A DNA stretch of 64,000 nucleotides, from assembly GCA_026414805.1 (NCBI GenBank), contig JAOAIH010000002.1, forward strand, positions 7,156 to 71,155, read 5' to 3'. Source of the stretch: Spirochaetota bacterium. GTDB lineage: Bacteria > Spirochaetota > UBA4802 > UB4802. Made by a program: the position numbers and the translations under genes. The notes under the pieces are model-generated. The model worked only from the letters and a program-made list of their open reading frames with translations, made no database searches and was not told the DNA's origin. Positions 24,874-63,898 of this stretch are shown here, one piece after another (positions within the stretch are counted from its first letter, which is position 1; each line of letters begins with the position of its first letter).

Positions 24874-24904
24874 TACTATCATAAGGTTATTGTATGAGGT
24901 TTCA

Positions 24905-32900: not shown

Positions 32901-35137
32901 TTATTGTCAATGGAACAGGAATAACACATTACAGATATAAACTAAATGAAGAAAACTGGAGTGATCCTATTCTACTGGGTACTAATATTGTACGTTCTGG
33001 ATTAATTGAAAATACATACAATCTTTATGTGATAGCAAAGGATGAAGCTGGAAATTGGACAAGTGAAAGTAATGCAAAAACATACTCATGGCGTGTTGAT
33101 TATACCAGTCCAATTGCAGCTATTACAAACAGACCTGATAATCCATCAAACCAAAACTGGGCTGAATTCATAATAGCGGGCACAGGGATTGTGCAATATA
33201 AATATAAAATAGATAATGGGTTGTGGAGTGATTGGGTTGATGTCAATCAGCATATAATTTTAAATAATCTACCTGATGGAATACATACAATTTCTGTGTG
33301 CGGACGAAAAAGTTCCAATCCACCTTATTTTGAACAGGCAGAACAGGATGCAACAACGTATACATGGGAAGTAGATACCGTTGCACCAACTGCTGTATTA
33401 AGCAACCTGCCATCAAATCCAACTACCAATACTTCAATAAGTATTACAGTAGGAGGTTTGCAGGTTGTGGCATATCGATACAGAATTAATAATGGAGCAT
33501 GGATACCTGTTACATCTGAAATCATCAAAGAATTCCCTATTGTCTTGAGCGGTCTTACCCCGGGTAACTATCAAATTGATGTTGTTGCTCGTGATTTAGC
33601 TGGTAACTGGCAAATCATACCAACAAGCTACGTATGGACAATAAATCCTCCTCCTCTTGTGTCACCAGCAACAGTGGATATTGGTGAATACAGTACATCT
33701 GCTGCACTAATGTTCAGTTGGGTGCGCCCGTATGGTACAGCAGATGTAAAAATACAAATAGCGTCTGATACCAATTTCAGCAATGTTGTTTTTGAAAGTG
33801 TAGTTGGCAACGTAGACAGCTATACATTTGTAGCGCAAAGTACCGAAATAGAACGTTATTATGCGCGTGTGGCTGTCAATGATCAACCTGGTAAGCCTTT
33901 AAATGATCCAAGCTGGAAACCATGGGGACAGGCAAGTAATGGAATTGCTATGGTGGGTTCAGTAAGTGGTGTTGTTAAAAATGCAGTAGGATTTGCAGCA
34001 TTGAGTAATGTAACTATTGAGTTAAGAAAAATGATTGATAATTCATTAATAGATACCACCACAACCGACACCAACGGTGGATTTACTTTTACTGGAGTAC
34101 CAATAGGCAGCAATAAATATAAACTTGTTGCTTCTCTTACAGGTTATTATACCGCAACAAAAAATAATATTACCATTACATTAGGTGTACAATTAAGCGC
34201 AGGAACAATATATCTTGTGCCAACCTCTGCATCAAGCGGTACCATTACCGGTACAGTCATTGATGCCAATGATGCAAGTAAATTAGCGGGAGTAACCGTT
34301 GAGGTATATAACTGGCAAAATATTTTAGTAGCATCTACAGTGACTGCATCAGGAGGTACATTTACAACAACAACGTTAAGTCCCGGTGTATATTCTGTAT
34401 TGTTTAAAAGGACTAACTATTATGATCTTTTAGTAGATAATATCGTAGTCAATGGCAACAGAGATATAGGACGCCAGGCAATTTGTGCATATCTTGTTGA
34501 GCCAATGGTACGTGTAATAGTGTTATGGGGACAAAACCCTCAGGATCTTGACCTGCACGTTGTTGGTCCAACATCACAAACAGTTGTCGAAGCCGATACT
34601 GCCTATAATAATCCTCAAAACAGATTCCATGTGGGCTATATTGGATATACAAATTATAAATGGCAATATAATTATAATGAACTCACTGGTGCATACGAAA
34701 GAGGTGATGATAAAAGCTCAACTACAGTTCCCGATAGAACAGGTACAAAATCAACCACTGCATTAGTACAGGATGTATATCCTGGAAATACCATTACAGG
34801 TTCCGGTTATGGTCCTGAGGCAATTAATTTATGGCGCTACGGAGGAGTTCAGTATGCCAGAGGTATTTTCACTTATACTGTCAGGAATTGGTCAGGAACT
34901 GATTGGTATGCTGGCGGAAGAGATGTCATAGTAAGGATATATGATTCACAAGGTATGGTACAGCAGATATTAATGCCGCAGGGAGCAACTGACCCTGGAA
35001 ATACAACCCGAGATTGGAAAGCGGTAAAAATCAATATACAGGGGAATACGCGTTCAAAACGTATTATTTATGTGCCAACGCAAGGAGTATTTTTCAATGC
35101 CGGTGTGGATAGAAACAAGGCTGGTTTTGACTGGTAA
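29924..35137 (+). CDS. giant secreted/surface protein: N-terminal Ig-like domain, 11 tandem ~90-aa beta-sandwich repeats, two carboxypeptidase-regulatory-like domains, PPC-like C-terminal domain
   Basis: GGGGTGGAG Shine-Dalgarno and signal peptide (MRRLIWLILLLAISNIVCSG). Repeats at ~30658..33660 share the pattern 'DTTPP.a.L.n.P...TN.......V.G.g...Y(R/K)YK.n...WS.........L.dG.H...V.g.D.AGNWQ'. These are followed by 'GVVKNAVGFAALSNVTIEL...TDTNGGFTFTGVP' and 'GTITGTVIDANDASKLAGVTVEVY' (CarbopepD_reg-like) and a C-terminus with 'VIVLWGQNPQDLDLHVVGP' (pre-peptidase C-terminal-like). Confidence 0.8.
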   Translation: MRRLIWLILLLAISNIVCSGDVFHNYKKERDTMSIPYTPDTTPPHIVEVKALTSNTIKVIFDEQIDPATALNYANYYIQGINRVNVLSNPAPSMDGSNAVILNVSTGLEYGMHHGKQYTLLAQNIKDISGNILLNGISQFTGKGQIVASIWFYDKNNDLRQFSDDLDYIYFNSKNIEFIIKVNDDTNGYYSYSIDDLPYSSEIPCTDKLILSNLSDGVHTLQVIGKDSQGKLQDLNQPSSVSFIVDTTPPVATLSKLPESVTNNTEIAVVVGGLDVVMYRFRLNNEPWSNVISVNTPIIRKKLLGGNYRLEVKGIDSAGNEQNIATAYQWRVTSGNSIYFVSKPERYTRLRNVDVTLGGENIYFYKYSINNNIWSGYISIDQPIVLRNLQDGDYTIRVIGAVIPGDTPSETDEIEYTWTVDTKPPVCTLSNLPANFTNKQRVTMVVSSTDGEVVAYKYKLFRNGYLHEESGVCSVTQPLELSNLSEASYTLKVMGIDKAGNIQSESSATEYTWTIDLTPPQVSLYNLPARDSKINSIDIAVGPPDVVSYKYCLNTVTWSQEINRSINITRANLSDGIYTLSVIGKDLAGNWQSFQTPTQHIWEIDTTPPTAVLLNKPPEVTNLQSADFVIGGVGVVKYRYKYNGGEWSQEYDRIQYPNIVLDNLYEGSHTIQVIGCDKAGNWQIIPTQYTWSINVSLPTAILSGTPSYYSNVNNINITVGGAGIIAYRYKIDNQSWSAEIDVSNPIVISNLSEGYHIIKVIGKNSLNQWQSVEAATTFEWIIDTVPPVAQLTNTPQSPTNNQSIAIKVYGVGVYAYKYSLDDPDPRGSQEFLIDTDDTINIDNILGGQHTLYVIARDEAGNWQDYNHPTTYIWTIDTSTPTAMFDAATLPKNITNQTGINIKVMGSNIVKYKYKLDTLPWSGEIDVNDPIMRLGLAEGTHIVKVIGKNEAGTWQSESNATEYSWIIDITPPAPPEILLQNLPNNLTNETSINIIVNGTGITHYRYKLNEENWSDPILLGTNIVRSGLIENTYNLYVIAKDEAGNWTSESNAKTYSWRVDYTSPIAAITNRPDNPSNQNWAEFIIAGTGIVQYKYKIDNGLWSDWVDVNQHIILNNLPDGIHTISVCGRKSSNPPYFEQAEQDATTYTWEVDTVAPTAVLSNLPSNPTTNTSISITVGGLQVVAYRYRINNGAWIPVTSEIIKEFPIVLSGLTPGNYQIDVVARDLAGNWQIIPTSYVWTINPPPLVSPATVDIGEYSTSAALMFSWVRPYGTADVKIQIASDTNFSNVVFESVVGNVDSYTFVAQSTEIERYYARVAVNDQPGKPLNDPSWKPWGQASNGIAMVGSVSGVVKNAVGFAALSNVTIELRKMIDNSLIDTTTTDTNGGFTFTGVPIGSNKYKLVASLTGYYTATKNNITITLGVQLSAGTIYLVPTSASSGTITGTVIDANDASKLAGVTVEVYNWQNILVASTVTASGGTFTTTTLSPGVYSVLFKRTNYYDLLVDNIVVNGNRDIGRQAICAYLVEPMVRVIVLWGQNPQDLDLHVVGPTSQTVVEADTAYNNPQNRFHVGYIGYTNYKWQYNYNELTGAYERGDDKSSTTVPDRTGTKSTTALVQDVYPGNTITGSGYGPEAINLWRYGGVQYARGIFTYTVRNWSGTDWYAGGRDVIVRIYDSQGMVQQILMPQGATDPGNTTRDWKAVKINIQGNTRSKRIIYVPTQGVFFNAGVDRNKAGFDW

Positions 35138-35375: not shown

Positions 35376-36002
35376 ATGATGCAAAAAAAAGTGCAATTGG
35401 TCATTACTGTTTATATCCTATTTATGTTTTCATTAAAGCTGTATGCTCAGCAAAAACAGGCCGATATAAAAAAACAAAAGTTTGAACCAACCAAGCCTGC
35501 TATTGAAATACAAAAAACAAATGATACAAAACAATATAGTAATATTATTTTTGCAATGTCTGGTGGATATTTTTCCCCTTTAGGAACCGAGTCTGTGATG
35601 TTAAATGGTAGCTGGATGATTAAATCGTTTATTCAGCAAAATAATATTGAAAATACCCTTTTTGGAATAGGTGGCGATTTGCTTTACACAAAACTTCAGG
35701 ATAAAAAGTATGATGGTTATATAATGTATGTAACATTTATACCAAATGCAACAGCAGTATTTCCATTGTACAAGAATTTAATGGTAATACTAAAAGCCGG
35801 ACCAGGCTTTACAGTACTACATTCACATTTAAATGACTTAAATGAAAGCTCACTATCAATGACATTAGCAGCTGGTGCAGGATTATTTATAATTATAAGT
35901 CAGCAATTTATATGGGGTATTGAAAACATGTATCATTATTACTTTCAGATACATGCTTCATCATCGTTAAGTTATTATTCCTATATTGGATATAGATGGT
36001 AA
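35376..36002 (+). CDS. small secreted protein, predicted outer-membrane beta-barrel (OmpW/OmpA-like size class)
   Basis: Cleavable signal peptide (MMQKKVQLVITVYILFMFSLKLYAQQ). Alternating hydrophobic beta-strand pattern with an aromatic C-terminus (...YSYIGYRW). 208 aa. Confidence 0.5.
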   Translation: MMQKKVQLVITVYILFMFSLKLYAQQKQADIKKQKFEPTKPAIEIQKTNDTKQYSNIIFAMSGGYFSPLGTESVMLNGSWMIKSFIQQNNIENTLFGIGGDLLYTKLQDKKYDGYIMYVTFIPNATAVFPLYKNLMVILKAGPGFTVLHSHLNDLNESSLSMTLAAGAGLFIIISQQFIWGIENMYHYYFQIHASSSLSYYSYIGYRW

Positions 36003-36047: not shown

Positions 36048-37550
36048 ATGAAAAGAATTGTCACAGTAATGGTATTAATGTTGAATTTTGTTTTTTTTGC
36101 ATTCAGGTTATCTGCTACTACTACCAGAGATATGGGACTTGGATTATTTGAATACCCCTGGTTTATTGATGGGTTGCAGTCGTATATCTATGAAAACCCT
36201 GCATATATCAGCAATTACGGTGACAAGATATATGCTGAGCGAATTGGAATTATAAATGGGGAAAATAAAGGTGGTGTCATTTATAATATAAAAAATAATT
36301 TGTTTATTGGAGTAGATTTGGGATCTCCAGTTGATACAAGCCTATGGAATACTAATGCTGTAGATAGCTTATTTAATGTAGATGTTTATTCAGCAAAATG
36401 TAAATCACACTACAACCATTCTATTATTACATCACAGTCAATGAAAGCATATCAGGTTGAATTGCTTGATGAAACAATTTTAGATATAAAAGATCCCTAT
36501 GATGCAAGTGAGCTTGTTGGTACCAACACTACATCGCCTCAATTACGTGAAAAGCTTAATCAGCGAAACTTCAGTGCATTATTTGGCTATAAGTTAAATA
36601 AATTTAGTGTTGGTTTTTATGCAGGCTACGCCACTTCATGGAAACATTACCGTGACAGCACTTCGGCAACAAATTCACATGAAGAATATAATCTAATCAA
36701 TGCTGAGTATTCTGCCAAATTAGGAGTTTCATATATAATAAATAATAAGGTAAGCTTTGATATATCAGGATTCTTTTTCATGTATGCATTAGACAATAAT
36801 TATATGCAAAGAAAGCCTGGTATTGATTTTGATATGTCATACAAATCGGACGGTGCAATGGATTTTGGATCAAATCTAAGAGTTAATTATGCAATGACTA
36901 ATAATCAAAAAGTGCATTTTTATGTAAGTTACTGGATGTTAAACAGAAGTACAAAAGGTGAGATGCTTATATCTGATTCAAAACCCATTAATAATGTAAA
37001 TGCTACTGATACCTTTGAACGTAAAGGTCAGAAAATAAGTGCTGGTGTTTCAGATGAGATAAGTATTGATAAGAATATGATAGTGTTCATTGGATTTTTA
37101 ACTAATATAGAATTCTTTAAAAATAATTACTACGGAGTGGATGCCATAACTCCCGCAAATAACGTAGATACGTATACGTTAAATTACAAGGCAATAGAAG
37201 TACCCGTAATAATTGGCCTTGAAGCTAATGTAAGTGAAAATTGGAAAGGACGCTTAGGGCTTGTGCAAAAGATATACAAACCATTGTCGTATGATGGTAC
37301 CAATATAATTAATCAAGGTGCAAATAAGATTCCTACCACCATTGATGAAATATCATCTTCATCTTCTACATTATATACAGGGCTATCCTATAAATTAAAT
37401 AATTTTACTTTTGATTGGCTGATGAATGTTGAATTATTTACGGTTGGTCCATACATTATTTCAGGTAAGTCCTGGACGGCTAATAATGAAAATCCTTTGG
37501 CTTTTGCATTTGCAATTACTTATAATTTTGAAACCAAAAGTAGTGAATAA
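36048..37550 (+). CDS. secreted 500-aa protein, predicted outer-membrane beta-barrel of unknown family
   Basis: GGAGG Shine-Dalgarno and signal peptide. Numerous amphipathic beta-strand segments rich in Y/F/N/S/G ('FSVGFYAGYATSW', 'VSFDISGFFFMYAL', 'VHFYVSYWML', 'LAFAFAITYNFE'). No soluble POTRA-like N-domain. Confidence 0.45.
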   Translation: MKRIVTVMVLMLNFVFFAFRLSATTTRDMGLGLFEYPWFIDGLQSYIYENPAYISNYGDKIYAERIGIINGENKGGVIYNIKNNLFIGVDLGSPVDTSLWNTNAVDSLFNVDVYSAKCKSHYNHSIITSQSMKAYQVELLDETILDIKDPYDASELVGTNTTSPQLREKLNQRNFSALFGYKLNKFSVGFYAGYATSWKHYRDSTSATNSHEEYNLINAEYSAKLGVSYIINNKVSFDISGFFFMYALDNNYMQRKPGIDFDMSYKSDGAMDFGSNLRVNYAMTNNQKVHFYVSYWMLNRSTKGEMLISDSKPINNVNATDTFERKGQKISAGVSDEISIDKNMIVFIGFLTNIEFFKNNYYGVDAITPANNVDTYTLNYKAIEVPVIIGLEANVSENWKGRLGLVQKIYKPLSYDGTNIINQGANKIPTTIDEISSSSSTLYTGLSYKLNNFTFDWLMNVELFTVGPYIISGKSWTANNENPLAFAFAITYNFETKSSE

Positions 37551-45401: not shown

Positions 45402-46363
45402 AAGGCTACTGGTCAATCGTATGGAAGCGATTTGCTCAAAACAAGCTTGCTGTTACAGGTCTTTGCATTGTAATAGTATTATTTATTATAGCCTTATGTG
45501 CGCCACTAATAGCCAATAATAAACCATATATTTTAATTTATAAGGGTAAAACATATTTCCCACTTTTTTTTGATTATAAAGAATTTTCAGGAGTGGATTT
45601 TAAAAAACTAGAAGGATATAAAATATTCCCACCAATTCCATACTCATATTCAGAATATGATCTTAATGCTATTGTTCTCCCACCCACTTCCAAACATATT
45701 TTAGGAACAGACGAACAGGGTAGGGACCTTGCAGCACGAATGATTTATGGTACAAGAGTTTCCATATTTGTAGGATTTGTTGCGGTTTTTATTTATGTAA
45801 CTATTGGCATCATAATTGGTGCATTGGCAGGATATTATGGTGGCTGGGTTGATATACTGATATCACGAATAATTGAAATTGTTATGTGTTTCCCAACATT
45901 TTTTCTTATTCTTACCATTCTGGCACTTTGGGGACAGAGCCTTTTAAATGTAATGATAGTGATAGGAATAACAGGTTGGACAGGAATTGCACGAATTGTT
46001 CGTGGAGAATTCCTCAAATTACGTGAACAAGATTTTGTTATTGCATCTAAAGCACTGGGAGCCAGAGACTACTGGATTATTTTCAGGCATATACTGCCCA
46101 ATGCCATGGCTCCTGTTATGGTTTCGGCAACATTTGGAATTGCTTCTACTATACTTATTGAATCATCACTGAGTTTTTTGGGTTTTGGAGTTCAGCCACC
46201 AACACCAAGTTGGGGCGACATTTTATCACAATCACGTGATTTTATCGACTTTGCATGGTGGTTGACATTGATACCTGGCTTTGCTATATTTATAACCATA
46301 ACATCATATAATTTAGTTGGCGAAGGATTGCAGGATGCGCTTGATCCAAAGCAATATCGTTAA
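45398..46363 (+). CDS. ABC transporter permease, OppC/DppC-like
   Basis: OppC-type N-terminus and permease core ('IASKALGARDYWIIFRHILPNAMAPVMV'). 4-bp overlap with the OppB-like gene. Confidence 0.85.
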   Translation: MKGYWSIVWKRFAQNKLAVTGLCIVIVLFIIALCAPLIANNKPYILIYKGKTYFPLFFDYKEFSGVDFKKLEGYKIFPPIPYSYSEYDLNAIVLPPTSKHILGTDEQGRDLAARMIYGTRVSIFVGFVAVFIYVTIGIIIGALAGYYGGWVDILISRIIEIVMCFPTFFLILTILALWGQSLLNVMIVIGITGWTGIARIVRGEFLKLREQDFVIASKALGARDYWIIFRHILPNAMAPVMVSATFGIASTILIESSLSFLGFGVQPPTPSWGDILSQSRDFIDFAWWLTLIPGFAIFITITSYNLVGEGLQDALDPKQYR

Positions 46364-47228
46364 AATTTCATTTGTGTTTGTTGTATCAATTTTCATTTCG
46401 TGTCTTTCTTTTTTTGAAGAAAAGCAGGAAACGAAAGACCTGCTACCTAGTGAAACAGAACTTTATACCTGGAAACTAATAAAAATAACAAGTATAAATA
46501 ATAAAAATGAAATATTGAGCGTCTCTCCACATTACTACCAATATTATGCTGTTACCGAAATTGTGAAAGGTGAATATCAATCAATAAACAACCCAGCAGT
46601 TTATATAACAGTTACTATCGCCAAAACTACAACGATAGATGATGCATATGGACTTTTTACCCGTGAACGAGTAAATAATGAAAAATCTAATCTAAAAAAT
46701 AATTACAGCATTTACTGGAAAAACAGAAGTATTGCATTCAAGGGAAATATGTTAATCAAACTAGAAACAAATGATACAGATTATATAAAAACTCAGAAAA
46801 ATATGATTGAATTAATACTTGAAAAAATACAACTAAAGCAGGCTCTTCCCGACAGCATTAATACTATAGCCAAATATTGTGCACTTGATAATGTTATTAT
46901 ATTCAATGAAGGCATTCCGCCAATACCGTATATAAAAAAAATAATTGTTTGCAAAAAGCTCATCGAATCTAAGGAAATAACCGCATATTACAAGATATAT
47001 ACTACTAATCTTGAAGCATCTCAAAATTTTGATATGATGGTAACAATTGACAATACGTTGATGTTAGTGGAATCAGGTAAAATCAAATTAGCATTTAAAA
47101 AGTTTGGCGATAGTTACTGTTATATAGCTCAATATAATGAATGGATTTTTGGCGTATATGACATAACAGATTATAACATTGGTAAACAATATACGTATAC
47201 CCTTTACAAAGAATTGAGTACTCCATGA
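46335..47228 (+). CDS. hypothetical lipoprotein
   Basis: Signal peptide with lipobox ('VVSIFISC'). No conserved domain recognised. Overlaps the 3' end of the oppC-like gene and abuts the phosphatase gene. The ORF is open from ATG 46317. Confidence 0.5.
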   Translation: MRLIQSNIVKISFVFVVSIFISCLSFFEEKQETKDLLPSETELYTWKLIKITSINNKNEILSVSPHYYQYYAVTEIVKGEYQSINNPAVYITVTIAKTTTIDDAYGLFTRERVNNEKSNLKNNYSIYWKNRSIAFKGNMLIKLETNDTDYIKTQKNMIELILEKIQLKQALPDSINTIAKYCALDNVIIFNEGIPPIPYIKKIIVCKKLIESKEITAYYKIYTTNLEASQNFDMMVTIDNTLMLVESGKIKLAFKKFGDSYCYIAQYNEWIFGVYDITDYNIGKQYTYTLYKELSTP

Positions 47229-54393: not shown

Positions 54394-54735
54394 TTAAATA
54401 TTTATATTGTATCGTTTATATAATTCATCTTCAGTAAAAATATTAATTGCATATTTAGGCAATGCCCGTTCAAGGATCATGTAAATTTTATCATTTGCAC
54501 CAAAAAAAACAACATCAAAATTATGATTATCTCCAAATTTTAAAAGATTAATTATTGCTGCAACAGCGGCAGAATTAATAGTATCAACCTGAGAAAAATT
54601 AATTGCCACTGTTGATATTTTTTCAGGTAGTAATTTTTCAATATATTTTATTAATTTAACATCATCTCCATATTCACCAATACCCGTGATTGTGAGTATG
54701 ATTACATCAGCATAACTATTGTGTGTAAAATTCAT
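54394..54735 (-). CDS. second STAS-domain protein
   Basis: 113-aa protein with 'VIILTITGIGEYGDD...TVAINFSQVDTINSAAVAAIINLLKF' consistent with the STAS/SpoIIAA fold. Sits in tandem with the preceding STAS gene. Confidence 0.6.
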   Translation of the reverse strand: MNFTHNSYADVIILTITGIGEYGDDVKLIKYIEKLLPEKISTVAINFSQVDTINSAAVAAIINLLKFGDNHNFDVVFFGANDKIYMILERALPKYAINIFTEDELYKRYNINI

Positions 54736-55466
54736 CCTTTTCCCCTTGATTCTTTTAGCTTTTGTAGTAATTTTTCTAATTGTTCAATAGTTTTTATAGA
54801 ATCATCTGAAAGTTTTATTGTAGTATCACTTTTGAAGTAATCATTTATCAATGAATTCACTACACCAGTATATAGTACATTAATCGATTTAATTAATTCA
54901 ATAAACGAATGTTTTTGAATACCCTCTTTTTTTAGGAAAGGGAATATAAAATGAAAGATTTTCGATGCGGATTTTATTATAGTATCCTTATAATGTTTTA
55001 TTACAAGAAATGCAATATATGGAAATAATAATATTCCATTTGTTTTTAACATTGTAGCAATTGTATATATCCAATCTATTTCAAAACTTGTATTCCATGT
55101 AAACCATAAAATATTAATAATTACCATTGATAAAAAAAATGATATTTTGCCTTTTGGAAAGCCAATTGCTGATAAACCTGCAGAAGTGAAGGCAATAGCA
55201 AAAAATAATGCAATTGCCCTGAACCCTAAAAAGTTTGAGATTGCTGATATAAAAGAATAGATAGTATCTAAGAAACGTGACAACCCTTCAAATGTTGTTT
55301 TAATCTGGTTATATGTATCAAATAGTTCAATAGAATAAGATGGAATACTGGTAAAAAGACATATAAAAGAAATCATCAAAATAAAGAATAATTTGTTTTT
55401 AACTATCAAGTATTGATTTTTTCTAAATTGTATCATTGTATATATAAACAAAATACATTTTAACAC
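54732..55466 (-). CDS. polytopic membrane protein of unknown function with C-terminal coiled-coil tail
   Basis: 244-aa ORF with ~5 TM segments, heading the STAS-STAS-gpmI-glgA-slt minus-strand gene string. 4-bp overlap with the downstream STAS gene. Confidence 0.5.
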   Translation of the reverse strand: MLKCILFIYTMIQFRKNQYLIVKNKLFFILMISFICLFTSIPSYSIELFDTYNQIKTTFEGLSRFLDTIYSFISAISNFLGFRAIALFFAIAFTSAGLSAIGFPKGKISFFLSMVIINILWFTWNTSFEIDWIYTIATMLKTNGILLFPYIAFLVIKHYKDTIIKSASKIFHFIFPFLKKEGIQKHSFIELIKSINVLYTGVVNSLINDYFKSDTTIKLSDDSIKTIEQLEKLLQKLKESRGKG

Positions 55467-56438: not shown

Positions 56439-58193
56439 ATGGAGCTATCGCCCAACATAAAACAAAGAATACAGATATTACCCGATGCTGTAAAAAGAAA
56501 AATAGCTGCGGGCGAAGTTATTGATGGCCCTTATTCCGTAATTAAAGAACTTGTGGAAAATGCCATAGATGCCCAAGCCAGCCAAATTGAAATTGAAATT
56601 GAGGAAAGTGGGCTAAAGCGAATTGTTGTTAAAGATAACGGTATTGGCATATACAGGGAAGACCTGCCATTAGCGGTTGAAGAACATGCTACCAGTAAAA
56701 TCAGAAATATTGAAGACATTTTTTCAATTATAACCATGGGGTTTAGAGGCGAAGCGCTGTCAAGTATTGCAGAAGTATCAAAATGCACAATTTTGTCACA
56801 TACACAGGATGAAGATATCGGTGGCAAGCTTGTTGTTTCTGACGGTAAAAAAGAAATGTATGATTGGGCAGGTCCACATGGAACTACAGTTATTATAGAA
56901 AATCTTTTTTATAACACACCTGCACGGAAAAAATTCATCAAAGGATTAAAGGCCGAACTCAATCGCATTAAGGATATTATATTTTCAATAGCGTTGGCAA
57001 ATCCGCATATACAATTCAAAGTAACTATCGATAACAAAACTACATTTTTATTTGAACCAGCTGATACTTTGCAACGCATTGGGCAGATTTATGGCAGTGA
57101 AGTGGCAAGCAATATGATATATGGTTCACTTACAGATTTGCAGTGTACAATGGAGGGCTATTGCTCTAATCCTCACTATTACCGTTCCAACAGGTCAATG
57201 CAGTTTTTGTTTGTTAATCGCAGGCCTGTTCAGTTTCAATATTTTAGTTTTATATTACAGCAGGTATATCAATCTATTTTACACAAAGGTCAATATCCAG
57301 CTGCTTTTATTTTTTGCACAATAAATCCCGAATTAATTGATGTGAATGTACATCCTGCAAAAAAAGAGATCAGGTTTTTTGATAGCAATTACATCCATGC
57401 GATGATTTACAATTTTGTAAATAAGGTGATTAGCCAAACTGTGTTCACATTTCCAATCAAAGATAAGGATAATGAAAATATCCTACACCAAGAAACCCAT
57501 ACTACAACGCAAATTACTGATAATTCCTCTAATATTTTTGAAGCACCACCTTTAGTGTATTTAAACCAGACTGCTGTAAACAAGAATACTGTAATAAAAG
57601 AGGTGCAACGCTTATATACAGATCTTAAGCATAGAGATTATGAAGTACTGGGTACTGTATTTGGTACCTACATTTTGATTCAAAAACAAGATAACCTTTA
57701 CATAATAGATTTTCACGCTGCTCATGAAAAAAAAATATTTGATTATCTTATGCGTATAGATTCTACCGTGGGAAGCCAACAGTTGCTTATGCCTGTTGTC
57801 ATGGAGCTTTCGCCTGATTTACTCATTGATGTTAGTAATTATCATGATATCCTTGCACAGTATGGAATTATTATAGACCAATTTGATGATCATTCTATTA
57901 TTGTCAATGCTGTCCCTGATTTTTGCTCTACTAATGATATTGAAGGATTGGTAAGGGATATTATCGATAGTATCCATGAAAACAAAAATTCAATACACGA
58001 TATTAAAATTAAAATAATTGAAAAAATTGCTTGCCATTCTGCAAAACGAGCACACGATACAATTAATCACGATGATATAATTGCAATTGCTGATTATACA
58101 TTTTCAACAAATGATTATCGCTGCCCACATGGAAGGCCATTTGTATATGTACTATCAAAAACTGAATTAGAGAGGTTTTTCAAGCGATCATGA
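56439..58193 (+). CDS. mutL: DNA mismatch repair protein MutL
   Basis: GHKL ATPase N-terminus ('IQILPDAVKRKIAAGEVIDGPYSVIKELVENAIDAQAS', 'DNGIGI', 'GFRGEAL') plus a C-terminal dimerisation domain. Start assigned to ATG 56439; the ORF is open from TTG 56430. Confidence 0.9.
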   Translation: MELSPNIKQRIQILPDAVKRKIAAGEVIDGPYSVIKELVENAIDAQASQIEIEIEESGLKRIVVKDNGIGIYREDLPLAVEEHATSKIRNIEDIFSIITMGFRGEALSSIAEVSKCTILSHTQDEDIGGKLVVSDGKKEMYDWAGPHGTTVIIENLFYNTPARKKFIKGLKAELNRIKDIIFSIALANPHIQFKVTIDNKTTFLFEPADTLQRIGQIYGSEVASNMIYGSLTDLQCTMEGYCSNPHYYRSNRSMQFLFVNRRPVQFQYFSFILQQVYQSILHKGQYPAAFIFCTINPELIDVNVHPAKKEIRFFDSNYIHAMIYNFVNKVISQTVFTFPIKDKDNENILHQETHTTTQITDNSSNIFEAPPLVYLNQTAVNKNTVIKEVQRLYTDLKHRDYEVLGTVFGTYILIQKQDNLYIIDFHAAHEKKIFDYLMRIDSTVGSQQLLMPVVMELSPDLLIDVSNYHDILAQYGIIIDQFDDHSIIVNAVPDFCSTNDIEGLVRDIIDSIHENKNSIHDIKIKIIEKIACHSAKRAHDTINHDDIIAIADYTFSTNDYRCPHGRPFVYVLSKTELERFFKRS

Positions 58194-58726
58194 AACAAAA
58201 AATAATTTTAGGAATATCATCATCTATTGCTGCATATAAGGCATGTGATCTGGCACGAATGCTCACAAAAGATGGGTATGATGTGTTCTGCGTACTCACG
58301 GAAAATGCCACGCACCTGGTTGCTCCGCTTACATTGCAGACGCTCACTGGGAACCCAGTGTATACAACTAGTTTTGCACTACAATGGCGCCAGATGGGAC
58401 ATATTGAGTTAAAGGAAAATGCTGCATTATTGCTGGTTGCACCTGCAACAGCTAACATTATAGGGAAATTTGCAAATGGCATTGCTGATGATCTTTTAAG
58501 TACTACTTTTTTAGCAGTTGATTGTCCGGTTGTGATAGCTCCTGCCATGAATCCAAATATGTGGAAACATAAGGCGGTACAGGAAAACATAAAAAAATTG
58601 AAGGAATGGGGCTGTATATTTGTTGAGCCTGAAACTGGCCTTGTTGCGTGCGGTGATGAAGGCAAGGGCAGGCTTGCATCTATAGAATCCATCTATGAGG
58701 CAGCTATTTATGCAATTAAACGATAA
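58190..58726 (+). CDS. coaC: phosphopantothenoylcysteine decarboxylase (flavoprotein; CoaC domain), separate ORF
   Basis: 'MKQKIILGISSSIAAYKACDLARML' flavoprotein fold with the 'PAMNPNMW' region. Ends in a TAA that lies in a different frame from the downstream CoaB ORF. 4-bp overlap with mutL. Confidence 0.8.
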   Translation: MKQKIILGISSSIAAYKACDLARMLTKDGYDVFCVLTENATHLVAPLTLQTLTGNPVYTTSFALQWRQMGHIELKENAALLLVAPATANIIGKFANGIADDLLSTTFLAVDCPVVIAPAMNPNMWKHKAVQENIKKLKEWGCIFVEPETGLVACGDEGKGRLASIESIYEAAIYAIKR

Positions 58727-59378
58727 AAAGGTGATAGTTACCGGCGGTCCCACTCGAGAATGGATCGACCCGGTACGGTATATATCCAATGCTTCCAGTG
58801 GCAAGATGGGCATAGCAATAGCTGATGCTGCATATAAAAAATGCAAGGAACTTATCTTCATCCATGGGCCTATTGATGCATCATTGATTGCTGCAAAAAC
58901 TTACCGGTGTATAGGTGTGGAAAGCACTGTTGATATGCTTGAGGCTGTACAGAATGAGCTGTCGCCAGGTTGCATTTTAATAATGGCTGCTGCACCTGCT
59001 GATTATAAACCGGTAACAAAATCTCCTGTTAAAATTAAAAAAACAAATGAAAATCTTACTATTGAATTACAACGAAATCCTGATATTTTAAAAACAATAG
59101 CAAAACTAAAGAAAGATAAAAGTGAATTCAAAGATGTTGTTCTGATTGGTTTTGCTGCTGAAACTACTGATGTGATAGCCTATGGCAAAGCAAAGCTTAT
59201 TGAAAAAGAGCTGTCGATGATTTGCATCAATGATGTAAGTCGTAATGATACTGGGTTTGGAAGTGATTATAATGAAGTTACCGTGATGCTTGCAAATGGC
59301 AGTGTATTTGATCTTCATAAGATGACTAAAAAGGAAGTAGCTGAAGGGATAATCAATATTATAATTAATGAATTATAA
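58695..59378 (+). CDS. coaB: phosphopantothenate--cysteine ligase (CoaB domain), separate ORF in +1 frame
   Basis: 'VIVTGGPTREWIDPVRYISNASSGKMG' is the CoaB signature. In most bacteria this domain is fused to CoaC as Dfp. Here it overlaps coaC by 32 nt in another frame. Confidence 0.75.
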   Translation: MRQLFMQLNDKKVIVTGGPTREWIDPVRYISNASSGKMGIAIADAAYKKCKELIFIHGPIDASLIAAKTYRCIGVESTVDMLEAVQNELSPGCILIMAAAPADYKPVTKSPVKIKKTNENLTIELQRNPDILKTIAKLKKDKSEFKDVVLIGFAAETTDVIAYGKAKLIEKELSMICINDVSRNDTGFGSDYNEVTVMLANGSVFDLHKMTKKEVAEGIINIIINEL

Positions 59379-59441: not shown

Positions 59442-60134
59442 TTATAATAATATTGTATTTTTATATTTTGCTAAAATCCTTTTATTGAAAATATCGTTGC
59501 ACACAATTCTACCTTTTTCAAGTACAATGATCCTATTGGCTAATTGTTGAACAGCATATGCTGAATGTGTGGAAAATATCACAGGTACTGAAATTCCTTT
59601 TAATATATTTAAAACAGCATCTGCTGACGGTTTATCTAAATTGGCTAATGGTTCATCAAGTAAAAGTATTTTTGGTTTTTTTGCAAGTACGGCAGCCAAT
59701 GCTGCCCGTTTCATCTGTCCACTTGAAAGGGCTAATGGATTATGAAAGATGCTATCTCCAAGCTGAACTTTTTCAAGCCACATTTGTGCCTGTAACTTTT
59801 TATCTTCCTTTGAGCCTTCCTTGATGCTGAGCATTACATCATTTAAAAGGTCAGGCATTATGAACTGATATTCAACCTGTGAAAACAGCATGCCAACGTT
59901 TTTTCTTATTGTTGATTTATTGCTATTAGTTAGTGGAATATCAAAAATAGTAATTTTACCACTTGTTGGCAATTGCAATGCTGATAATAATAAAAGTAAG
60001 GTTGACTTGCCCGATCCATTGTGCCCAATAACAGCTACTTTTTGATTATACATTAGCGAAAAGGATATATCCTTTAAAGCTTCAGTTCCATTTGGATATC
60101 TATATGACACGTTTTCTACGCTAATTATTTTCAT
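59442..60134 (-). CDS. ABC ATPase, ECF/CbiO-type energizing component
   Basis: Walker A 'GHNGSGKSTLL', ABC signature 'LSSGQMKRAALAAV', and Walker B 'ILLLDEPLANLD'. 230 aa. Confidence 0.85.
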   Translation of the reverse strand: MKIISVENVSYRYPNGTEALKDISFSLMYNQKVAVIGHNGSGKSTLLLLLSALQLPTSGKITIFDIPLTNSNKSTIRKNVGMLFSQVEYQFIMPDLLNDVMLSIKEGSKEDKKLQAQMWLEKVQLGDSIFHNPLALSSGQMKRAALAAVLAKKPKILLLDEPLANLDKPSADAVLNILKGISVPVIFSTHSAYAVQQLANRIIVLEKGRIVCNDIFNKRILAKYKNTILL

Positions 60135-60150
60135 GACTGTAATTATACCA

Positions 60151-60807
60151 TCAAAAAATAATATTTATAATGAGAAGTATTATTATTAGTACAGTAACAA
60201 TATATTCTTTCATTGAATAGTTATGGTAAATAATTATTTCTGGTATTGTATCAGCAGTACGTGAAATAATTCCATTTCTGTAATGTGCAAGTGAATAAAA
60301 CTGATTTGAAACAAATGCTACAGAATAATATTTTGGTATATAATATTTCTCATTGCTTTTCATGTTGATGCGTGACTGAATCTGATATACTATCATTGTA
60401 TTCAATCGTAATAATTTATACAGAATACGTGTAAACACCAGGAAAAAAAGTTTTATTGTATCAGGAAAAACATTAATAAATGCTTTGAATCCATTGCTGC
60501 CAATAAAAAAGCGAGAGCCTATAATGATTATTGTGGCACATACTATTTTAAATGTAGTTTGTATTATCAAAAAAACATTATATTGTGAAAAAATTAATCC
60601 ACTTACTATTTGCATTATTATAATAGTTATTACCAGAGGAATAATAATTATTAATGTATAACGCATATATGCTGGAATATTACTATAATAAATAAAAGCA
60701 AATATAATACACGACACAAACCATAATAAAGACATTTCGGTGAATACAGTGATAAATATAAGCACACTAATAGTTATAATAATTTTAACCCATTCAAATA
60801 AAGGCAT
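60151..60807 (-). CDS. ECF transporter transmembrane (T/CbiQ-like) component
   Basis: 218-aa protein with ~5 TM segments and Arg-containing cytoplasmic segments near the C-terminus. Lies between the methyltransferase and the ATPase with 1-bp coupling. Confidence 0.5.
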   Translation of the reverse strand: MPLFEWVKIIITISVLIFITVFTEMSLLWFVSCIIFAFIYYSNIPAYMRYTLIIIIPLVITIIIMQIVSGLIFSQYNVFLIIQTTFKIVCATIIIIGSRFFIGSNGFKAFINVFPDTIKLFFLVFTRILYKLLRLNTMIVYQIQSRINMKSNEKYYIPKYYSVAFVSNQFYSLAHYRNGIISRTADTIPEIIIYHNYSMKEYIVTVLIIILLIINIIF

Positions 60808-61427
60808 TATGATACTTCCGCATGTATGAAGTTCAACTCAGGTTGGTCTATATACTGTTTCATTATAAATCCTGTTTGGTGGAGCATGTTTTGTATTTCT
60901 TCACGGTATGGCATATAATCTCTGCTTACCGGTGCATTGAGATTATGATGGAAATCATTGAGCGTTTTTGTATCTGATAGGTGAAAGATATACAGCAGGC
61001 CATTCTGCTTTAAACATTCATGACATTTTTTTAATGCCTGTAATTTATCCTCAATATGAGGGAAAACAGCAAAACACAGTATAACATCAATACTGTTATG
61101 GGGTAAAGAAATATCTTCAAGGGGTGAAACGATATATTGAATATTAAAAAAACGCTTATGCCGTTCTTTAGCTACTTCAATCATCTTGTCAGATGCATCA
61201 ACAGCAATCAAAGAACCGTTAGGCCCAATGTATTCTTGAATAATCGGGAAAAGCACCCCTGTACCGCAACCAACATCCAGTACGCAATCGCCATTTTTAA
61301 TGTGCATCATTTCAAAAATTTTTTTAATTTTTTGTAATCTAACTGCATCATTACCAACAACTTCGTCCCAATTTTTACTTAAATTATTGAAGTATAGTAT
61401 TTTATCATCATAATTGCTATTTACCAT
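60807..61427 (-). CDS. class I SAM-dependent methyltransferase
   Basis: Motif I 'VLDVGCGTGVLF' and an acidic motif II 'LIAVDASDKM'. 206 aa. Embedded between the S and T components of the ECF operon, with an 11-bp overlap upstream and a 1-bp overlap downstream. Confidence 0.8.
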   Translation of the reverse strand: MVNSNYDDKILYFNNLSKNWDEVVGNDAVRLQKIKKIFEMMHIKNGDCVLDVGCGTGVLFPIIQEYIGPNGSLIAVDASDKMIEVAKERHKRFFNIQYIVSPLEDISLPHNSIDVILCFAVFPHIEDKLQALKKCHECLKQNGLLYIFHLSDTKTLNDFHHNLNAPVSRDYMPYREEIQNMLHQTGFIMKQYIDQPELNFIHAEVS

Positions 61428-61950
61428 AACTATCGCCTATTTTTTGTAATAATGAAGTAATACTAATAACAGCTGGTGGTGTTATTATAATTAGTAATAT
61501 GATACCCGGAAAACTTTTAAAAAGGTCGTATATACTGAACACTGCCACTGATATTTTAAAGTAAGGTAGCAGAAATGCATATAATATATAGAGAACAATT
61601 CTATCTATAATAATAGCAGTTATTATAACTAAATAATTGTTTAAATTGAATTTGTGCTTTAACGCTGATATAACACAACAAAAAATTGACAATTCAACAA
61701 CCATAATAAACGTAATTGGGGGATAGAGAGGAGGCATGCCTGTTACAATAGTTGATGTTATGGGTGCGATAGCTCCTGCTAAAACAGCATAACCCGGTGT
61801 AAGAAAATATGCTCCAATCGACAGTGGAATAAACATTGGTAAAAAGATTGACCCCAGTCCTAACATGTGGAATAGAATAGGTAATAGGACAGCACAAGCT
61901 GCAGATATAGCAGTGATAATTATTTGATTTATGTGAAACTCATCATGCAT
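61417..61950 (-). CDS. small 6-TM membrane protein, putative ECF transporter substrate-capture (S) component
   Basis: 177-aa protein with ~6 TM segments. It is the first gene of the S-MT-T-A string. N-terminus is MHDEFH... Confidence 0.45.
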   Translation of the reverse strand: MHDEFHINQIIITAISAACAVLLPILFHMLGLGSIFLPMFIPLSIGAYFLTPGYAVLAGAIAPITSTIVTGMPPLYPPITFIMVVELSIFCCVISALKHKFNLNNYLVIITAIIIDRIVLYILYAFLLPYFKISVAVFSIYDLFKSFPGIILLIIITPPAVISITSLLQKIGDSYGK

Positions 61951-62128
61951 ACTAATATTATTATTATACTATTTTTAGTTTAATAAATCAGCTTTTGTAA
62001 TACGTTGATTATCATAATTTTTATCAAGAAGTTTTTTCTTTTTTATATAATTTTTTTCTTGAACTGCACAATATAATAGATATGTTTGTAATAAGTGGTT
62101 GAACCACTGAACCACCAAAACAAGGAGA

Positions 62129-63850
62129 ATGTTTATGGCAAAAAAATTTATACCTGACTGGTCCGAAAAAGCACCAGAGCCGTATTCATATCGTTCAATT
62201 TTCAAATGGGGTAATCCGCAAACATTTAAACATCCTAATCCAAAGTTATATCAAGAATTAAAAGAAATATTTAAACTTGATGATAGTTATTTTGCCAGTA
62301 AGAAAAATGAGGGACGAGAAGAAGTTAAGTATTCAAAACCGGTTAAATTAAGTAAAAAACATATTGAGGCTTTGGCAAAAATTGTAGGCTATGAAAACGT
62401 AAGTACCAAAGAATATGATAGGCTAAAATTTGCCACTGGTAAAACATTAGAAGAAGCATTGAAACTACGACAAGGTATTGTAGAACGTGTAGCTGATTGT
62501 GTTGTGCACCCTCGAGATACTGAAGATGTGGAAAAAGTTGTATCATATTGCAATAAACATAAAATCCCAGTATATGTGTATGGCGGTGGTTCGTCAGTAA
62601 ATTTTGGATTACGTCCAGCTAAGGGTGGTGTTACACTTGTCTTATCAACACATATGAATAAAATATTGCAACTTAATGAAACAAACCAAACAGTTACTGT
62701 ACAGGCTGGTATTTTAGGGCCTGCACTTGAAGAAGCATTAAACAATGCAAAAAAACTTTACGGCACAAAATATAATTACACCTGCGGCCATTTTCCGCAA
62801 TCGTTTGAATATTCTTCAATTGGCGGTTGGATTGTGACTCTTGGTTCGGGTCAGGCATCAAGCTATTACGGCGATGCCTACGACCTTGTTATCAGCATGA
62901 AATGGGTAACTCCTGTCGGTACTTTTACTACAAAAGACTACGCAGCCACAGCAACGGGCCCAAAAGTAAATGATATTATGAAAGGTTGTGAAGGCACCTT
63001 TGGAGTTCTTGTTGAAGTGACATGGAAAATTTACCGGTATATGCCAAAAAACCGAAAGAGGTTTGGATTTATATTTAAAACATTTGAAGATGCTGTAAAC
63101 GCTTCTCGTGAAATTTCGCAGGGTGAATTTGGTATGCCAGCAGTATTCAGAATCTCAGACGAAGAAGAAACACATATTGGATTAAAATTGTATGGAATAG
63201 ATGGTACAATATTAGATAAACTGATGCAACTGCGAGGCTATAAACCAATGCAGCGCTGCCTGTTTATAGGCTCAGCCGAAGGACAAAAGAATTTTACAAA
63301 GAATATTAAAAAGCAGGTAAAGAAAATATGCAAAAAATATGGTGGCCTGTATATAACAGGTTTACCAACACGTATGTGGGAGCCGGGGAGGTATAAGGAT
63401 CCTTATATACGTGAAGACTTAAATGATTATGGCATTGTAATTGATACTCTTGAGACTAGTGTAAAATGGGATAACATTCATGATGTGCATAAAGCAGTGC
63501 GACAATTCATAAAAGCAAGACCTCAGACTGTATGCATGACACATGCATCACATTTTTATCCACAGGGTACAAATCTATATTTTATCTATATTATGAAAAC
63601 TGACGACATCAATGAGTATATTAAATTCCAGGATGGCATTATTGATACAATTGCAAAAAGTGGCGGTTCATTGAGCCATCATCATGGTGTAGGGCGAATG
63701 TTAGCGCCATGGATGGAAGAACATATTGGCAAAGAACAGATGGCAGTGCTTCGTGCACTTAAAAGACATTTTGATCCTAACAATATAATGAATCCTGGCG
63801 GACAGTTGGGACTGGATTTAAAAGATAAGAATTGGAGGAATATTAAATAG
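62129..63850 (+). CDS. FAD-linked oxidase of the alkyldihydroxyacetonephosphate synthase (AGPS) family
   Basis: AAGGAG Shine-Dalgarno. An N-terminal extension with 'FKWGNPQ', an FAD_binding_4 domain ('VYVYGGGSSVNFG', 'TVQAGI'), and a C-terminal 'SLSHHHGVGRM...FDPNNIMNPG' containing the AGPS-diagnostic HHH triad. Confidence 0.8.
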   Translation: MFMAKKFIPDWSEKAPEPYSYRSIFKWGNPQTFKHPNPKLYQELKEIFKLDDSYFASKKNEGREEVKYSKPVKLSKKHIEALAKIVGYENVSTKEYDRLKFATGKTLEEALKLRQGIVERVADCVVHPRDTEDVEKVVSYCNKHKIPVYVYGGGSSVNFGLRPAKGGVTLVLSTHMNKILQLNETNQTVTVQAGILGPALEEALNNAKKLYGTKYNYTCGHFPQSFEYSSIGGWIVTLGSGQASSYYGDAYDLVISMKWVTPVGTFTTKDYAATATGPKVNDIMKGCEGTFGVLVEVTWKIYRYMPKNRKRFGFIFKTFEDAVNASREISQGEFGMPAVFRISDEEETHIGLKLYGIDGTILDKLMQLRGYKPMQRCLFIGSAEGQKNFTKNIKKQVKKICKKYGGLYITGLPTRMWEPGRYKDPYIREDLNDYGIVIDTLETSVKWDNIHDVHKAVRQFIKARPQTVCMTHASHFYPQGTNLYFIYIMKTDDINEYIKFQDGIIDTIAKSGGSLSHHHGVGRMLAPWMEEHIGKEQMAVLRALKRHFDPNNIMNPGGQLGLDLKDKNWRNIK

Positions 63851-63866
63851 AAAATGAAATATTATA

Positions 63867-63887
63867 GGGGCGAATATCCTTCGCCCC
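63867..63887. terminator. perfect 8-bp stem hairpin (GGGGCGAA-tatcc-TTCGCCCC), candidate bidirectional terminator between convergent genes
   Basis: GC-rich palindrome 16 nt after the AGPS-like stop and 12 nt after the stop of the minus-strand gene at 63899. The flanks are only moderately U-rich on either strand. Confidence 0.5.
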
Positions 63888-63898
63888 TAAACAGTTTA

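Follow-up and report, generated by a model that had tools for sequence, protein, structure and literature searches.

A putative flavoenzyme of a widespread, divergent bacterial branch of the AGPS family

The window analyzed here, a 64-kb stretch of Spirochaetota DNA, carries on its forward strand a coding sequence (62129..63850, stop codon included) for an AGPS-family flavoprotein, recognized from the open reading frame (ORF) list, Pfam and PDB matches, and dN/dS. Read from the ATG at 62129, the gene would encode 573 amino acids (aa); the ATG at 62135, which gives 571 aa, is the more probable start. A Shine-Dalgarno sequence read from the DNA, AAGGAG (62122..62127, forward strand), lies 7 nt ahead of the second ATG and 1 nt ahead of the first, and the four nearest orthologs (loci L001 and L006 to L008) are 571 aa long and begin MAKKF, MSKKF, or MVKKF, matching the second Met. 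Given this spacing and these lengths, the true start is probably 62135 rather than 62129. Past the stop codon, a terminator-like scan picked out a GC-rich hairpin, TAGGGGCGAATATCCTTCGCCCCTA (63865..63889, no strand assigned), between the AGPS-like gene and a convergent downstream gene, and this hairpin is a probable terminator common to both. In the syntenic locus L001, a convergent Omp85 gene likewise comes next. The AGPS-like gene is monocistronic in the window and in its four syntenic relatives, and it is under strong purifying selection, with a dN/dS of ~0.035 against four orthologs. A look-up for identical sequences returned no match to the protein, and its context was therefore read from orthologs.

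Three domains are encoded on this strand. An AGPS-specific N-terminal domain (62129..62413, approximately residues 1 to 95) includes ~20 clade-specific residues and an FKWG motif at 62201-62212. It is followed by a VAO-type FAD-binding domain (62495..62926, residues 123 to 266; PF01565, FAD_binding_4, E = 5.1e-33) and by a cap or substrate domain (63044..63799, residues 306 to 557; PF02913, FAD-oxidase_C, E = 6.1e-39). Inside the cap domain, R341 (63149-63151), R428 (63410-63412), and Y484 (63578-63580) map onto known AGPS residues, and a His-His-His loop, H517 to H519 (63677..63685), sits within SLSHHHGVGRM (residues 514 to 524, nt 63668-63700). The sequence-only reading had taken this string for the AGPS His-His-His motif, and the phmmer alignment to guinea pig AGPS (4bby) bears this out, pairing H517 to H519 with His615 to His617 of the catalytic site, Y484 with Tyr578, and R341 with Arg419. 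In an alignment to Dictyostelium ADPS, R341, R428, and Y484 correspond to R352, R447, and Y508, all of which matter by mutagenesis (PMC3509576). Among 139 family representatives, R341 and Y484 are kept in 134 to 135, and H517, H518, and H519 in 136, 131, and 136, respectively; the three His residues are invariant inside the clade of the window protein. Related loci were chosen by cluster membership, and the motif varies among them, HHHGIG occurring beside HHHGVG.

In ADPS, the N-terminal domain gates the lipid channel (PMC3509576). Residues 1 to 92 of the window protein gave no alignment to eukaryotic AGPS by BLASTP or phmmer; Foldseek alignments to AGPS include the N terminus and cover ~580 columns, compared to ~500 for D-LDH. 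W27-G28 of FKWG pairs with the second W-G of KWNGWG, the form found in Dictyostelium, trypanosomatid, and classical bacterial AGPS. This W-G is conserved in 121 of the 139 representatives, and the whole N-terminal region is almost invariant inside the clade. The earlier suggestion of an AGPS-like N-terminal W-G motif thus stands, with FKWG as a variant form.

Both Pfam domains are held in common with GlcD-type, D-lactate, and other 2-hydroxy-acid dehydrogenases of the VAO family, and the GlcD model TIGR00387 is the top NCBIfam match, so that an ordinary dehydrogenase merely resembling AGPS had to be considered. Such an enzyme would suit glycerol catabolism, whose DHAP can be turned into D-lactate via methylglyoxal. 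However, TIGR00387 scores 148 bits against a cutoff of 568, and NF008408 scores 76 against a cutoff of 897. In a phmmer search of PDB sequences, the AGPS structures 2uuu (E = 4.9e-75) and 4bby (E = 1.1e-61) came first and the best non-AGPS match reached 2.5e-21, a lead of more than 50 orders of magnitude. The fold agrees, as the top 37 Foldseek matches are all AGPS, with a TM score of ~0.81 versus 0.68 for D-LDH. BLASTP to Dictyostelium AGPS gave E = 1e-83 and 33% identity across residues 98 to 556, and the AGPS-specific His triad, Tyr, and Arg residues and the N-terminal domain are all present. Sequence, fold, and tree comparisons place the protein in the AGPS family, not among GlcD or D-LDH clades; with scores below curated cutoffs and AGPS residues in place, the dehydrogenase assignment was rejected as highly improbable.

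AGPS had been described as rare in bacteria when the sequence alone was considered, and this description does not survive the database searches. Among scored candidates, at least 4,547 matches reach E <= 1e-10 (none of the top 120 falling below 65% identity), a relative occurs in at least 596 species-representative genomes from many phyla, and 813 clusters formed at 50% identity match at E <= 1e-30. Published MAG surveys agree that bacterial AGPS homologs are not rare (PMC11868695). Within this large family, the window protein is 26 to 33% identical to eukaryotic and classical bacterial AGPS, while those two groups are 36 to 41% identical to each other, and a neighbor-joining tree built on a MAFFT alignment puts it in a tight, separate clade outside the eukaryote-like branch. 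We therefore assign it to a position outside the eukaryote/MXAN_1676-like branch, a separation made through published identities and eukaryotic anchors, as MXAN_1676 is absent from the tree. A myxobacterial- or eukaryote-type (MXAN_1676) ether-lipid pathway finds no support in this placement or in the window, which carries no FAR, GNPAT-type acyltransferase, or alkyl-DHAP-reductase-type SDR gene. Taken together, these comparisons assign the protein to a widespread and divergent bacterial branch of AGPS.

The neighborhoods of this clade have a character of their own. At 71 loci with proteins 50 to 74% identical to that of the window, 177 genes are tightly linked to the clade gene and run in its direction, comprising 37 GlpD/GlpA-like dehydrogenases, 31 FGGY kinases, 18 GntR/FadR-type regulators, 24 Pyr_redox_2/DUF1667 partners of the GlpA-like form, 4 DUF362 genes, and 63 heterogeneous genes. 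In most phyla, the clade gene comes after a GntR/FadR regulator and a GlpD-like dehydrogenase, usually with an FGGY kinase. Neither the partner dehydrogenase nor the partner kinase is the housekeeping enzyme, because their scores fall below the curated cutoffs for GlpD (302 versus 360 bits), GlpK (157 versus 590), and XylB (256 versus 380). The window protein is 71 to 74% identical to operon-embedded orthologs (L003, L005, and L009 to L014) and groups with all operon-bearing loci. In the window itself, tblastn with GlpD-like, GlpA-like, FGGY, GntR, DUF362, and Pyr_redox_2 representatives gave no match, and the syntenic loci L001, L002, and L006 to L008 are also without a GlpD-like dehydrogenase or kinase. 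As no GlpD-like, FGGY, GntR, or DUF362 gene lies within these 64 kb, the coupling is extrapolated from orthologs ~72% identical to the window protein.

Fusions in other branches tie AGPS-like and GlpD-like domains together. Four separate 50%-identity clusters consist of single AGPS-like::GlpD-like proteins of ~1,100 aa. A kinase expected beside these fusions was not found: two are solitary in their loci, and one is followed, three genes on, by a PF01553 acyltransferase and an SDR. The latter arrangement indicates that one partner set does not preclude the other. An acyltransferase::AGPS fusion (P0162) is also present in the family.

These last two arrangements favor an alternative in which the window protein carries out classical ether-lipid synthesis, joining acyl-DHAP from a GNPAT-type enzyme to a fatty alcohol from FAR, with the product reduced by an SDR and the partner genes located elsewhere in the genome. 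Every AGPS catalytic residue is present, and the classical module does exist in bacteria, both in the MXAN_1676 operon and in our controls from the eukaryote-like branch. In two of these, L087 and L088, the identical method did find operons of acyltransferase, SDR, and NAD_binding_4 reductase/PKS genes, and one of the three, L086, is solitary; gene context is informative, if not universal. The identity gap between the window protein and the eukaryote/classical branch argues against the classical assignment, as do the 177 linked genes in the 71 loci of its own clade, which include no FAR, no PF01553 acyltransferase, and a single SDR, in L072. A Pfam inventory of 43 window ORFs likewise revealed no FAR, acyltransferase, or other ether-lipid gene, and no FAR, GNPAT-type acyltransferase, or alkyl-DHAP-reductase-type SDR was found in the conserved neighborhood of 74 related loci. 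Leptospira, of the same phylum, Spirochaetota, is also reported to be without FAR1. We consider it improbable that the protein acts in the classical route, and a tie to ether-lipid metabolism that involves other partners is plausible.

Further partners come from actinobacteria, where the RefSeq annotation is independent of ours. In Kitasatospora, Tsukamurella, and Streptomyces, the homolog has a "glycerol-3-phosphate dehydrogenase/oxidase" with a TetR regulator on one side and a lipid kinase on the other, the latter annotated as [quoted passage not shown] Rv2252 is a characterized diacylglycerol (DAG) kinase (PMC3229680).

Whether the module handles lipids at all deserves consideration, as kinase, GlpD-like dehydrogenase, AGPS-like enzyme, and GntR repressor could instead form a catabolic module for a soluble glycerol or polyol derivative, in which the AGPS-like enzyme would remove or exchange a small C1 substituent or act as a dehydrogenase. 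GntR/FCD regulators, like FGGY kinases, are a usual feature of inducible pathways that break down carbohydrates and polyols, and the pairing of a kinase with a GlpD-like enzyme presumably resembles EryA and EryB of the Brucella erythritol pathway. The FGGY partner is nearest to xylulokinase models, and many of the hosts are fermenters or syntrophs. Yet the regulators give matches to the FadR C-terminal domain as well, the actinobacterial kinase partner is of the DAG kinase family, and no sugar or polyol transporter recurs among the linked genes of clade loci. In two myxobacterial loci, acyl-CoA dehydrogenases and SDRs flank the AGPS-like gene, and the AGPS-specific N-terminal domain, with its gating role in ADPS, has been retained and is highly conserved. 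A soluble, nonlipid substrate is thus unlikely in our view.

We lean instead, with modest confidence, toward a functional AGPS-family flavoenzyme of a distinct bacterial clade that would receive its substrate from a GlpD-like dehydrogenase and effect a net interconversion of ester and ether in lyso-glycerophosphates. Four observations underlie this proposal: the protein belongs to the AGPS family, its catalytic residues are in place, its gene is under purifying selection, and in relatives the gene is linked to GlpD-like and kinase genes. Because the catalytic set is intact, the enzyme most likely performs an AGPS-type acyl/alkyl exchange on 1-radyl-DHAP, and the predicted chemistry is non-redox. 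The Tyr base would deprotonate a 1-substituted dihydroxyacetone phosphate at C1, the resulting carbanion would add to N5 of the FAD, the C1 substituent (a carboxylate in AGPS) would depart, and an alcohol, or the partner of the reverse reaction, would add. The DHAP-level substrate most likely comes from the GlpD-like flavin dehydrogenase acting on 1-radyl-sn-glycerol-3-phosphate, that is, lysophosphatidate or its alkyl analogue, rather than from a GNPAT-type DHAP acyltransferase. The kinase, where present, probably makes the phosphate ester from 1-radyl-glycerol. The net outcome could be formation, salvage, or breakdown of ether lipids without oxygen, and the solitary copy in the window would work with an unlinked partner; substrate and direction are predicted in the same way. 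The FGGY kinases known to us act on soluble sugars and polyols, not on lipids, which counts against the proposal. No fatty alcohol source (FAR) is linked to the clade genes, and this also weighs on the other side.

A more tentative extension, which we put forward as a possibility, is that the AGPS-like enzyme and its GlpD-like partner, separate or, in other branches, fused, constitute a machine that is self-contained, independent of oxygen, and possibly redox neutral. In it, 1-radyl-glycerol-3-phosphate would be oxidized to the DHAP level, ester and ether would be swapped at the flavin, and the product would then be reduced again, with a kinase of the FGGY or DAG kinase type feeding in free alkyl- or acyl-glycerols. 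If so, a way to make, salvage, or cleave alkyl-ether lipids would be open to bacteria that lack FAR and GNPAT, among them Leptospira and many strict anaerobes. The literature searched contained no report of an assayed member of this clade, and a full-text search returned no paper joining AGPS, FGGY, and glycerol-3-phosphate dehydrogenase.

In metagenomics, AGPS homologs are already in use as markers for the capacity of bacteria to form ether lipids and plasmalogens, and the sole bacterial AGPS gene with genetic support, MXAN_1676, belongs to the other branch and has other partners. If a GlpD-like dehydrogenase and a kinase are the working partners of the branch described here, marker-based inference must tell the branches apart, and the puzzle of AGPS without FAR in Leptospira becomes testable. 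Alkyl-glycerol ethers are abundant sediment biomarkers, and their oxygen-independent making or breaking would then be a concrete biochemical hypothesis. If the protein is instead an ordinary AGPS with unlinked partners, the result is one of routine annotation.

Compared to the eukaryotic enzymes AGPS and ADPS (4bby and 2uuu), the window protein has the same succession of N-terminal domain, VAO-type FAD domain, and cap and the same His triad, Tyr, two Arg, and W-G. It differs in having FKWG in place of KWNGWG, ~20 extra clade-specific N-terminal residues, and no peroxisomal context, and its relatives are partnered by GlpD-like dehydrogenases and kinases rather than by GNPAT, FAR, and PexRAP. 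In bacteria, deletion of the AGPS homolog MXAN_1676 of Myxococcus xanthus slightly lowers ether lipids; sampled members of the classical branch lie in acyltransferase-SDR-AGPS-reductase/PKS operons, whereas the window clade is without such neighbors. In L. interrogans, where an AGPS is annotated and PEDS1 is functional, there is no FAR1, and the literature notes this AGPS without FAR1 as an open puzzle (PMC9131029). The ortholog in a Leptospiraceae MAG (L009), also of the Spirochaetota, is 72% identical to the window protein, although loci of the Leptospira type keep the order GntR-GlpD-like-AGPS, which the window lineage has lost.

The actinobacterial cluster of glpD, TetR, flavoprotein, and DAG kinase is alike in setting an AGPS-like protein, complete in its catalytic residues, beside a glycerol-3-phosphate dehydrogenase/oxidase and a kinase. 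It is unlike in its ~30 to 32% identity to the window protein, in a TetR rather than a GntR regulator, and in a DAG kinase-family rather than an FGGY kinase. We take the M. tuberculosis counterpart of this Rv2252-family cluster to be Rv2249c-Rv2252; the literature searched on Rv2251, Rv3107c, and agpS consists of proteomics listings and establishes no function for the flavoprotein. PlsA/PlsR and Ger, which serve anaerobic formation of ethers and plasmalogens, are unrelated proteins with unrelated chemistry and no homology to the window protein, and Ger reduces the ester on intact phospholipid. What they may share with this AGPS branch is a way to sn-1 ether lipids that needs no oxygen, in anaerobes that in many cases carry the window clade as well.

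By every test run, the protein encoded at 62129-63850 (+) is AGPS-like. Its top matches in a PDB-wide sequence search are Dictyostelium ADPS (2uuu, E=4.9e-75) and guinea-pig AGPS (4bby, 1.1e-61), whereas glycolate oxidase/D-LDH, the family that comes next, gets no further than ~1e-21. In BLASTP, residues 98-556 are 33% identical to the Dictyostelium enzyme (P0307; E=1e-83). A PDB structure search with its AlphaFold model (pLDDT 85, pTM 0.87) returned AGPS for all of the top 37 matches, at TM ~0.81 and, since ~580 columns are aligned, with the N-terminal domain taken in; D-LDH gives TM 0.68 over ~500 columns. The protein reaches no NCBIfam equivalog threshold, the top score being GlcD, at 148 bits against a cut-off of 568. 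Counted through the PDB alignment to 4bby, H517-H519, Y484 and R341 fall on His615-617, Tyr578 and Arg419, and R341, R428 and Y484 correspond to R352, R447 and Y508 of the Dictyostelium enzyme, residues whose importance was shown by mutagenesis and is listed in a review (PMC3509576). FKWG (residues 25-28) lines up with KWNGWG of Dictyostelium, trypanosomatid and bacterial AGPS; of 139 family representatives, 121 keep W27-G28 and 131-136 keep the catalytic residues. The protein thus belongs to the AGPS family in fold and catalytic residues, and the sequence-only reading was right to place its His-His-His triad at the AGPS active site, to regard its N-terminal W-G motif as AGPS-like, and to prefer AGPS over GlcD/D-LDH.

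The listed start, which gives 573 aa, is probably two codons early. A Shine-Dalgarno sequence, AAGGAG (62122-62127, +), lies 1 nt before the ATG at 62129 and 7 nt before that at 62135, and each of the four closest orthologs has 571 aa and begins at the second Met of the window ORF; the better spacing and the orthologs argue for ATG 62135. Between the gene and the convergent gene downstream, which in the syntenic locus L001 encodes Omp85, lies a GC-rich hairpin (63865-63889). Against four orthologs, dN/dS is ~0.035, with dS near saturation, showing strong purifying selection on this solitary copy.

The sequence-only reading called such proteins rare in bacteria, a view that does not survive wider searching. 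In a word-indexed protein search, 4,547 of the scored candidates reached E<=1e-10; the best 120 are all >=65% identical and come mostly from Spirochaetota MAGs, and many carry the JGI name alkyldihydroxyacetonephosphate synthase. Scanning a single genome for each species confirmed at least 596 relatives, spanning Spirochaetota, Thermodesulfobacteriota, Bacteroidales, Clostridia, Chloroflexota, Actinomycetota, Thermotogae, Caldisericota and Myxococcota, and HMMER, run exhaustively against 1.84 billion cluster representatives, gave 813 clusters at E<=1e-30. Equal breadth of bacterial AGPS is in print from MAG surveys (PMC11868695).

In a distance-based neighbour-joining tree of 139 representatives, which does not contain the MXAN_1676 sequence, the window protein sits in a tight clade apart from the branch with the eukaryotic anchor. 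Members of this clade share 50-74% identity across phyla and only 26-33% with Dictyostelium, trypanosomatid and "classical" bacterial AGPS, which are 36-41% identical among themselves. NUDIX::AGPS-like fusions (P0129 and P0136; 693 and 792 aa) form a sister group to this clade. Five other AGPS-like proteins of ~920-990 aa (P0223, P0234, P0239, P0246 and P0266) show two FAD_binding_4 matches and one cap domain in a Pfam scan.

The surroundings of the window gene are uninformative. In the window and in its syntenic relatives (L001, L002 and L006-L008; 86-90% identical) it is monocistronic, flanked upstream by a divergent ECF-like transporter/methyltransferase operon and downstream by the convergent Omp85 gene. 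The four-gene divergent operon (59442-61950, -), syntenic in five related loci, encodes a 177-aa membrane protein, a UbiE-like methyltransferase, a 218-aa membrane protein and an ABC ATPase; neither membrane protein has a Pfam match, the whole resembles an ECF-type transporter operon that includes a methyltransferase gene, and we found no link between it and the AGPS gene. No FAR, acyltransferase, GlpD or FGGY kinase is present among the 43 window ORFs scanned. Elsewhere in the window, the halves of CoaBC, usually a fusion, occupy separate overlapping ORFs (58190-58726 and 58695-59378, +; Flavoprotein/PF02441 and DFP/PF04127 in L001). A pair of neighboring giant ORFs (24890-29833 and 29924-35137, +; 1,647 and 1,737 aa), the first with 12 Big_5 Ig-like repeats and the second with Big_13, Y_Y_Y, CarboxypepD_reg, SdrD_B and SpaA-like domains, probably encode surface or adhesin proteins. 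For six sizeable ORFs of 208-500 aa (20055-21179, 23995-24873, 35376-36002, 36048-37550, 46317-47228 and 54732-55466), Pfam gives no match at E<=1e-5.

Elsewhere in the clade the gene lies in a conserved operon. ORFs were called in all loci and clustered, and an outward walk through co-directional genes <200 bp apart gave 177 linked genes. GlpD/GlpA-like flavoproteins account for 37 of them and FGGY-family kinases for 31; a further 24 encode the Pyr_redox_2 and DUF1667 proteins that partner the GlpA-like form, 18 encode GntR regulators carrying FCD/FadR_C domains, and 4 are DUF362 genes. The other 63 are heterogeneous, each family occurring at most twice, with no FAR or PF01553 acyltransferase among them. 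Since the partner dehydrogenase (302 vs 360 bits for GlpD) and kinase (157 vs 590 for GlpK, 256 vs 380 for XylB) score below curated thresholds, they are paralogs rather than housekeeping glycerol enzymes. Among relatives with the operon, those nearest to the window protein, a Leptospiraceae MAG among them, carry no more than GntR, the GlpD-like gene and AGPS. The clade is therefore genomically tied to a GlpD-like dehydrogenase; for the window gene, whose own neighborhood is silent, coupling would be an extrapolation from orthologs. We found no description of this linkage in the searchable literature, an absence that is not proof that none exists.

Two other arrangements were seen. In the Spirochaetota locus L003 (8264-15204) the AGPS-like gene lies between both dehydrogenase forms, a GlpD-like gene (DAO+DAO_C) upstream and a GlpA-like (DAO+Fer2_BFD)/Pyr_redox_2/DUF1667 trio downstream. 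In the myxobacterial MAG loci L068 (4167-7251) and L072 (2806-10695), two acyl-CoA dehydrogenases, and in L072 also two SDRs, flank the clade member, a lipid-flavored context unlike both the GlpD and the classical arrangements.

Independent support comes from gene fusions and actinobacteria. Single AGPS-like::GlpD-like polypeptides of ~1,100 aa (FAD_binding_4 + FAD-oxidase_C + DAO + DAO_C) form four distinct 50%-identity clusters; two are solitary in their loci, and a third lies downstream of a MarR regulator, with an acyltransferase and an SDR following three genes further on. The actinobacterial homolog (RefSeq-annotated Kitasatospora, Tsukamurella and Streptomyces) keeps the whole catalytic set, with a divergent TetR regulator and a "glycerol-3-phosphate dehydrogenase/oxidase" on one side and a [quoted passage not shown] downstream. 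In two of three loci the start of the kinase gene overlaps the AGPS-like stop codon; Rv2252 is a characterized DAG kinase (PMC3229680). The triad of kinase, GlpD-like and AGPS-like proteins thus recurs with non-homologous kinases, one a lipid kinase. The lipid kinase speaks against a serious rival, that the window protein acts on a soluble, non-lipid substrate, which we consider improbable.

Three loci of bacterial members of the eukaryote-like branch served as positive control for the context method. One (L087) carries PKS, acyltransferase, SDR and AGPS, another (L088) acyltransferase, AGPS, SDR and an AMP-binding/PP-binding/NAD_binding_4 reductase, and the third is solitary. In L087 (1-9659) AGPS is the last gene of the cluster and the PKS exceeds 4,400 aa, which suggests ether lipids on a polyketide-derived chain. 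The interpretation in the sequence-only reading is thus partly supported: AGPS family membership stands; sequence and context distinct from the classical branch, with another partner set, speak against the classical form of the pathway. A classical pathway with unlinked partners we rate somewhat lower still than a soluble substrate.

Bacteria acylate glycerol-3-phosphate, not DHAP, so in the most likely reading a GlpD-like enzyme acting on 1-radyl-G3P would supply the required ketone without GNPAT, and the same or the reverse step could bring the product back to the G3P level without an SDR. In AGPS chemistry, Tyr removes the pro-R hydrogen from C1 of acyl-DHAP and the resulting carbanion attacks FAD N5, after which fatty acid departs and fatty alcohol adds; the C2 ketone is essential (PMC3509576). 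Such a GlpD-based supply and return would explain the missing classical partners, the occasional fusion and the occurrence in strict anaerobes. Placed ahead of these steps, a kinase of FGGY or DAGK type would let free 1-radyl-glycerols enter; in mammals the analogous step falls to the unrelated ACAD10 kinase domain. A synthetic direction would need a fatty-alcohol source, and none is linked; a catabolic or salvage direction would fit the GntR/FadR-type regulators and the kinase.

As annotation the gene is ordinary; its value lies in pointing to a possible different route for ether-lipid metabolism in bacteria, one open to testing. L. interrogans has AGPS and a functional PEDS1 with no FAR1, the precursor source being noted as an open question (PMC9131029), and that question sits in the window's clade. 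MXAN_1676, the sole bacterial AGPS with genetic evidence, is reported to be ~42% identical to human AGPS and to share an operon with a FAR-GNPAT fusion. Judged by sequence and context, the window gene is a distinct bacterial variant, with a partner set unlike that of every characterized ether-lipid pathway.
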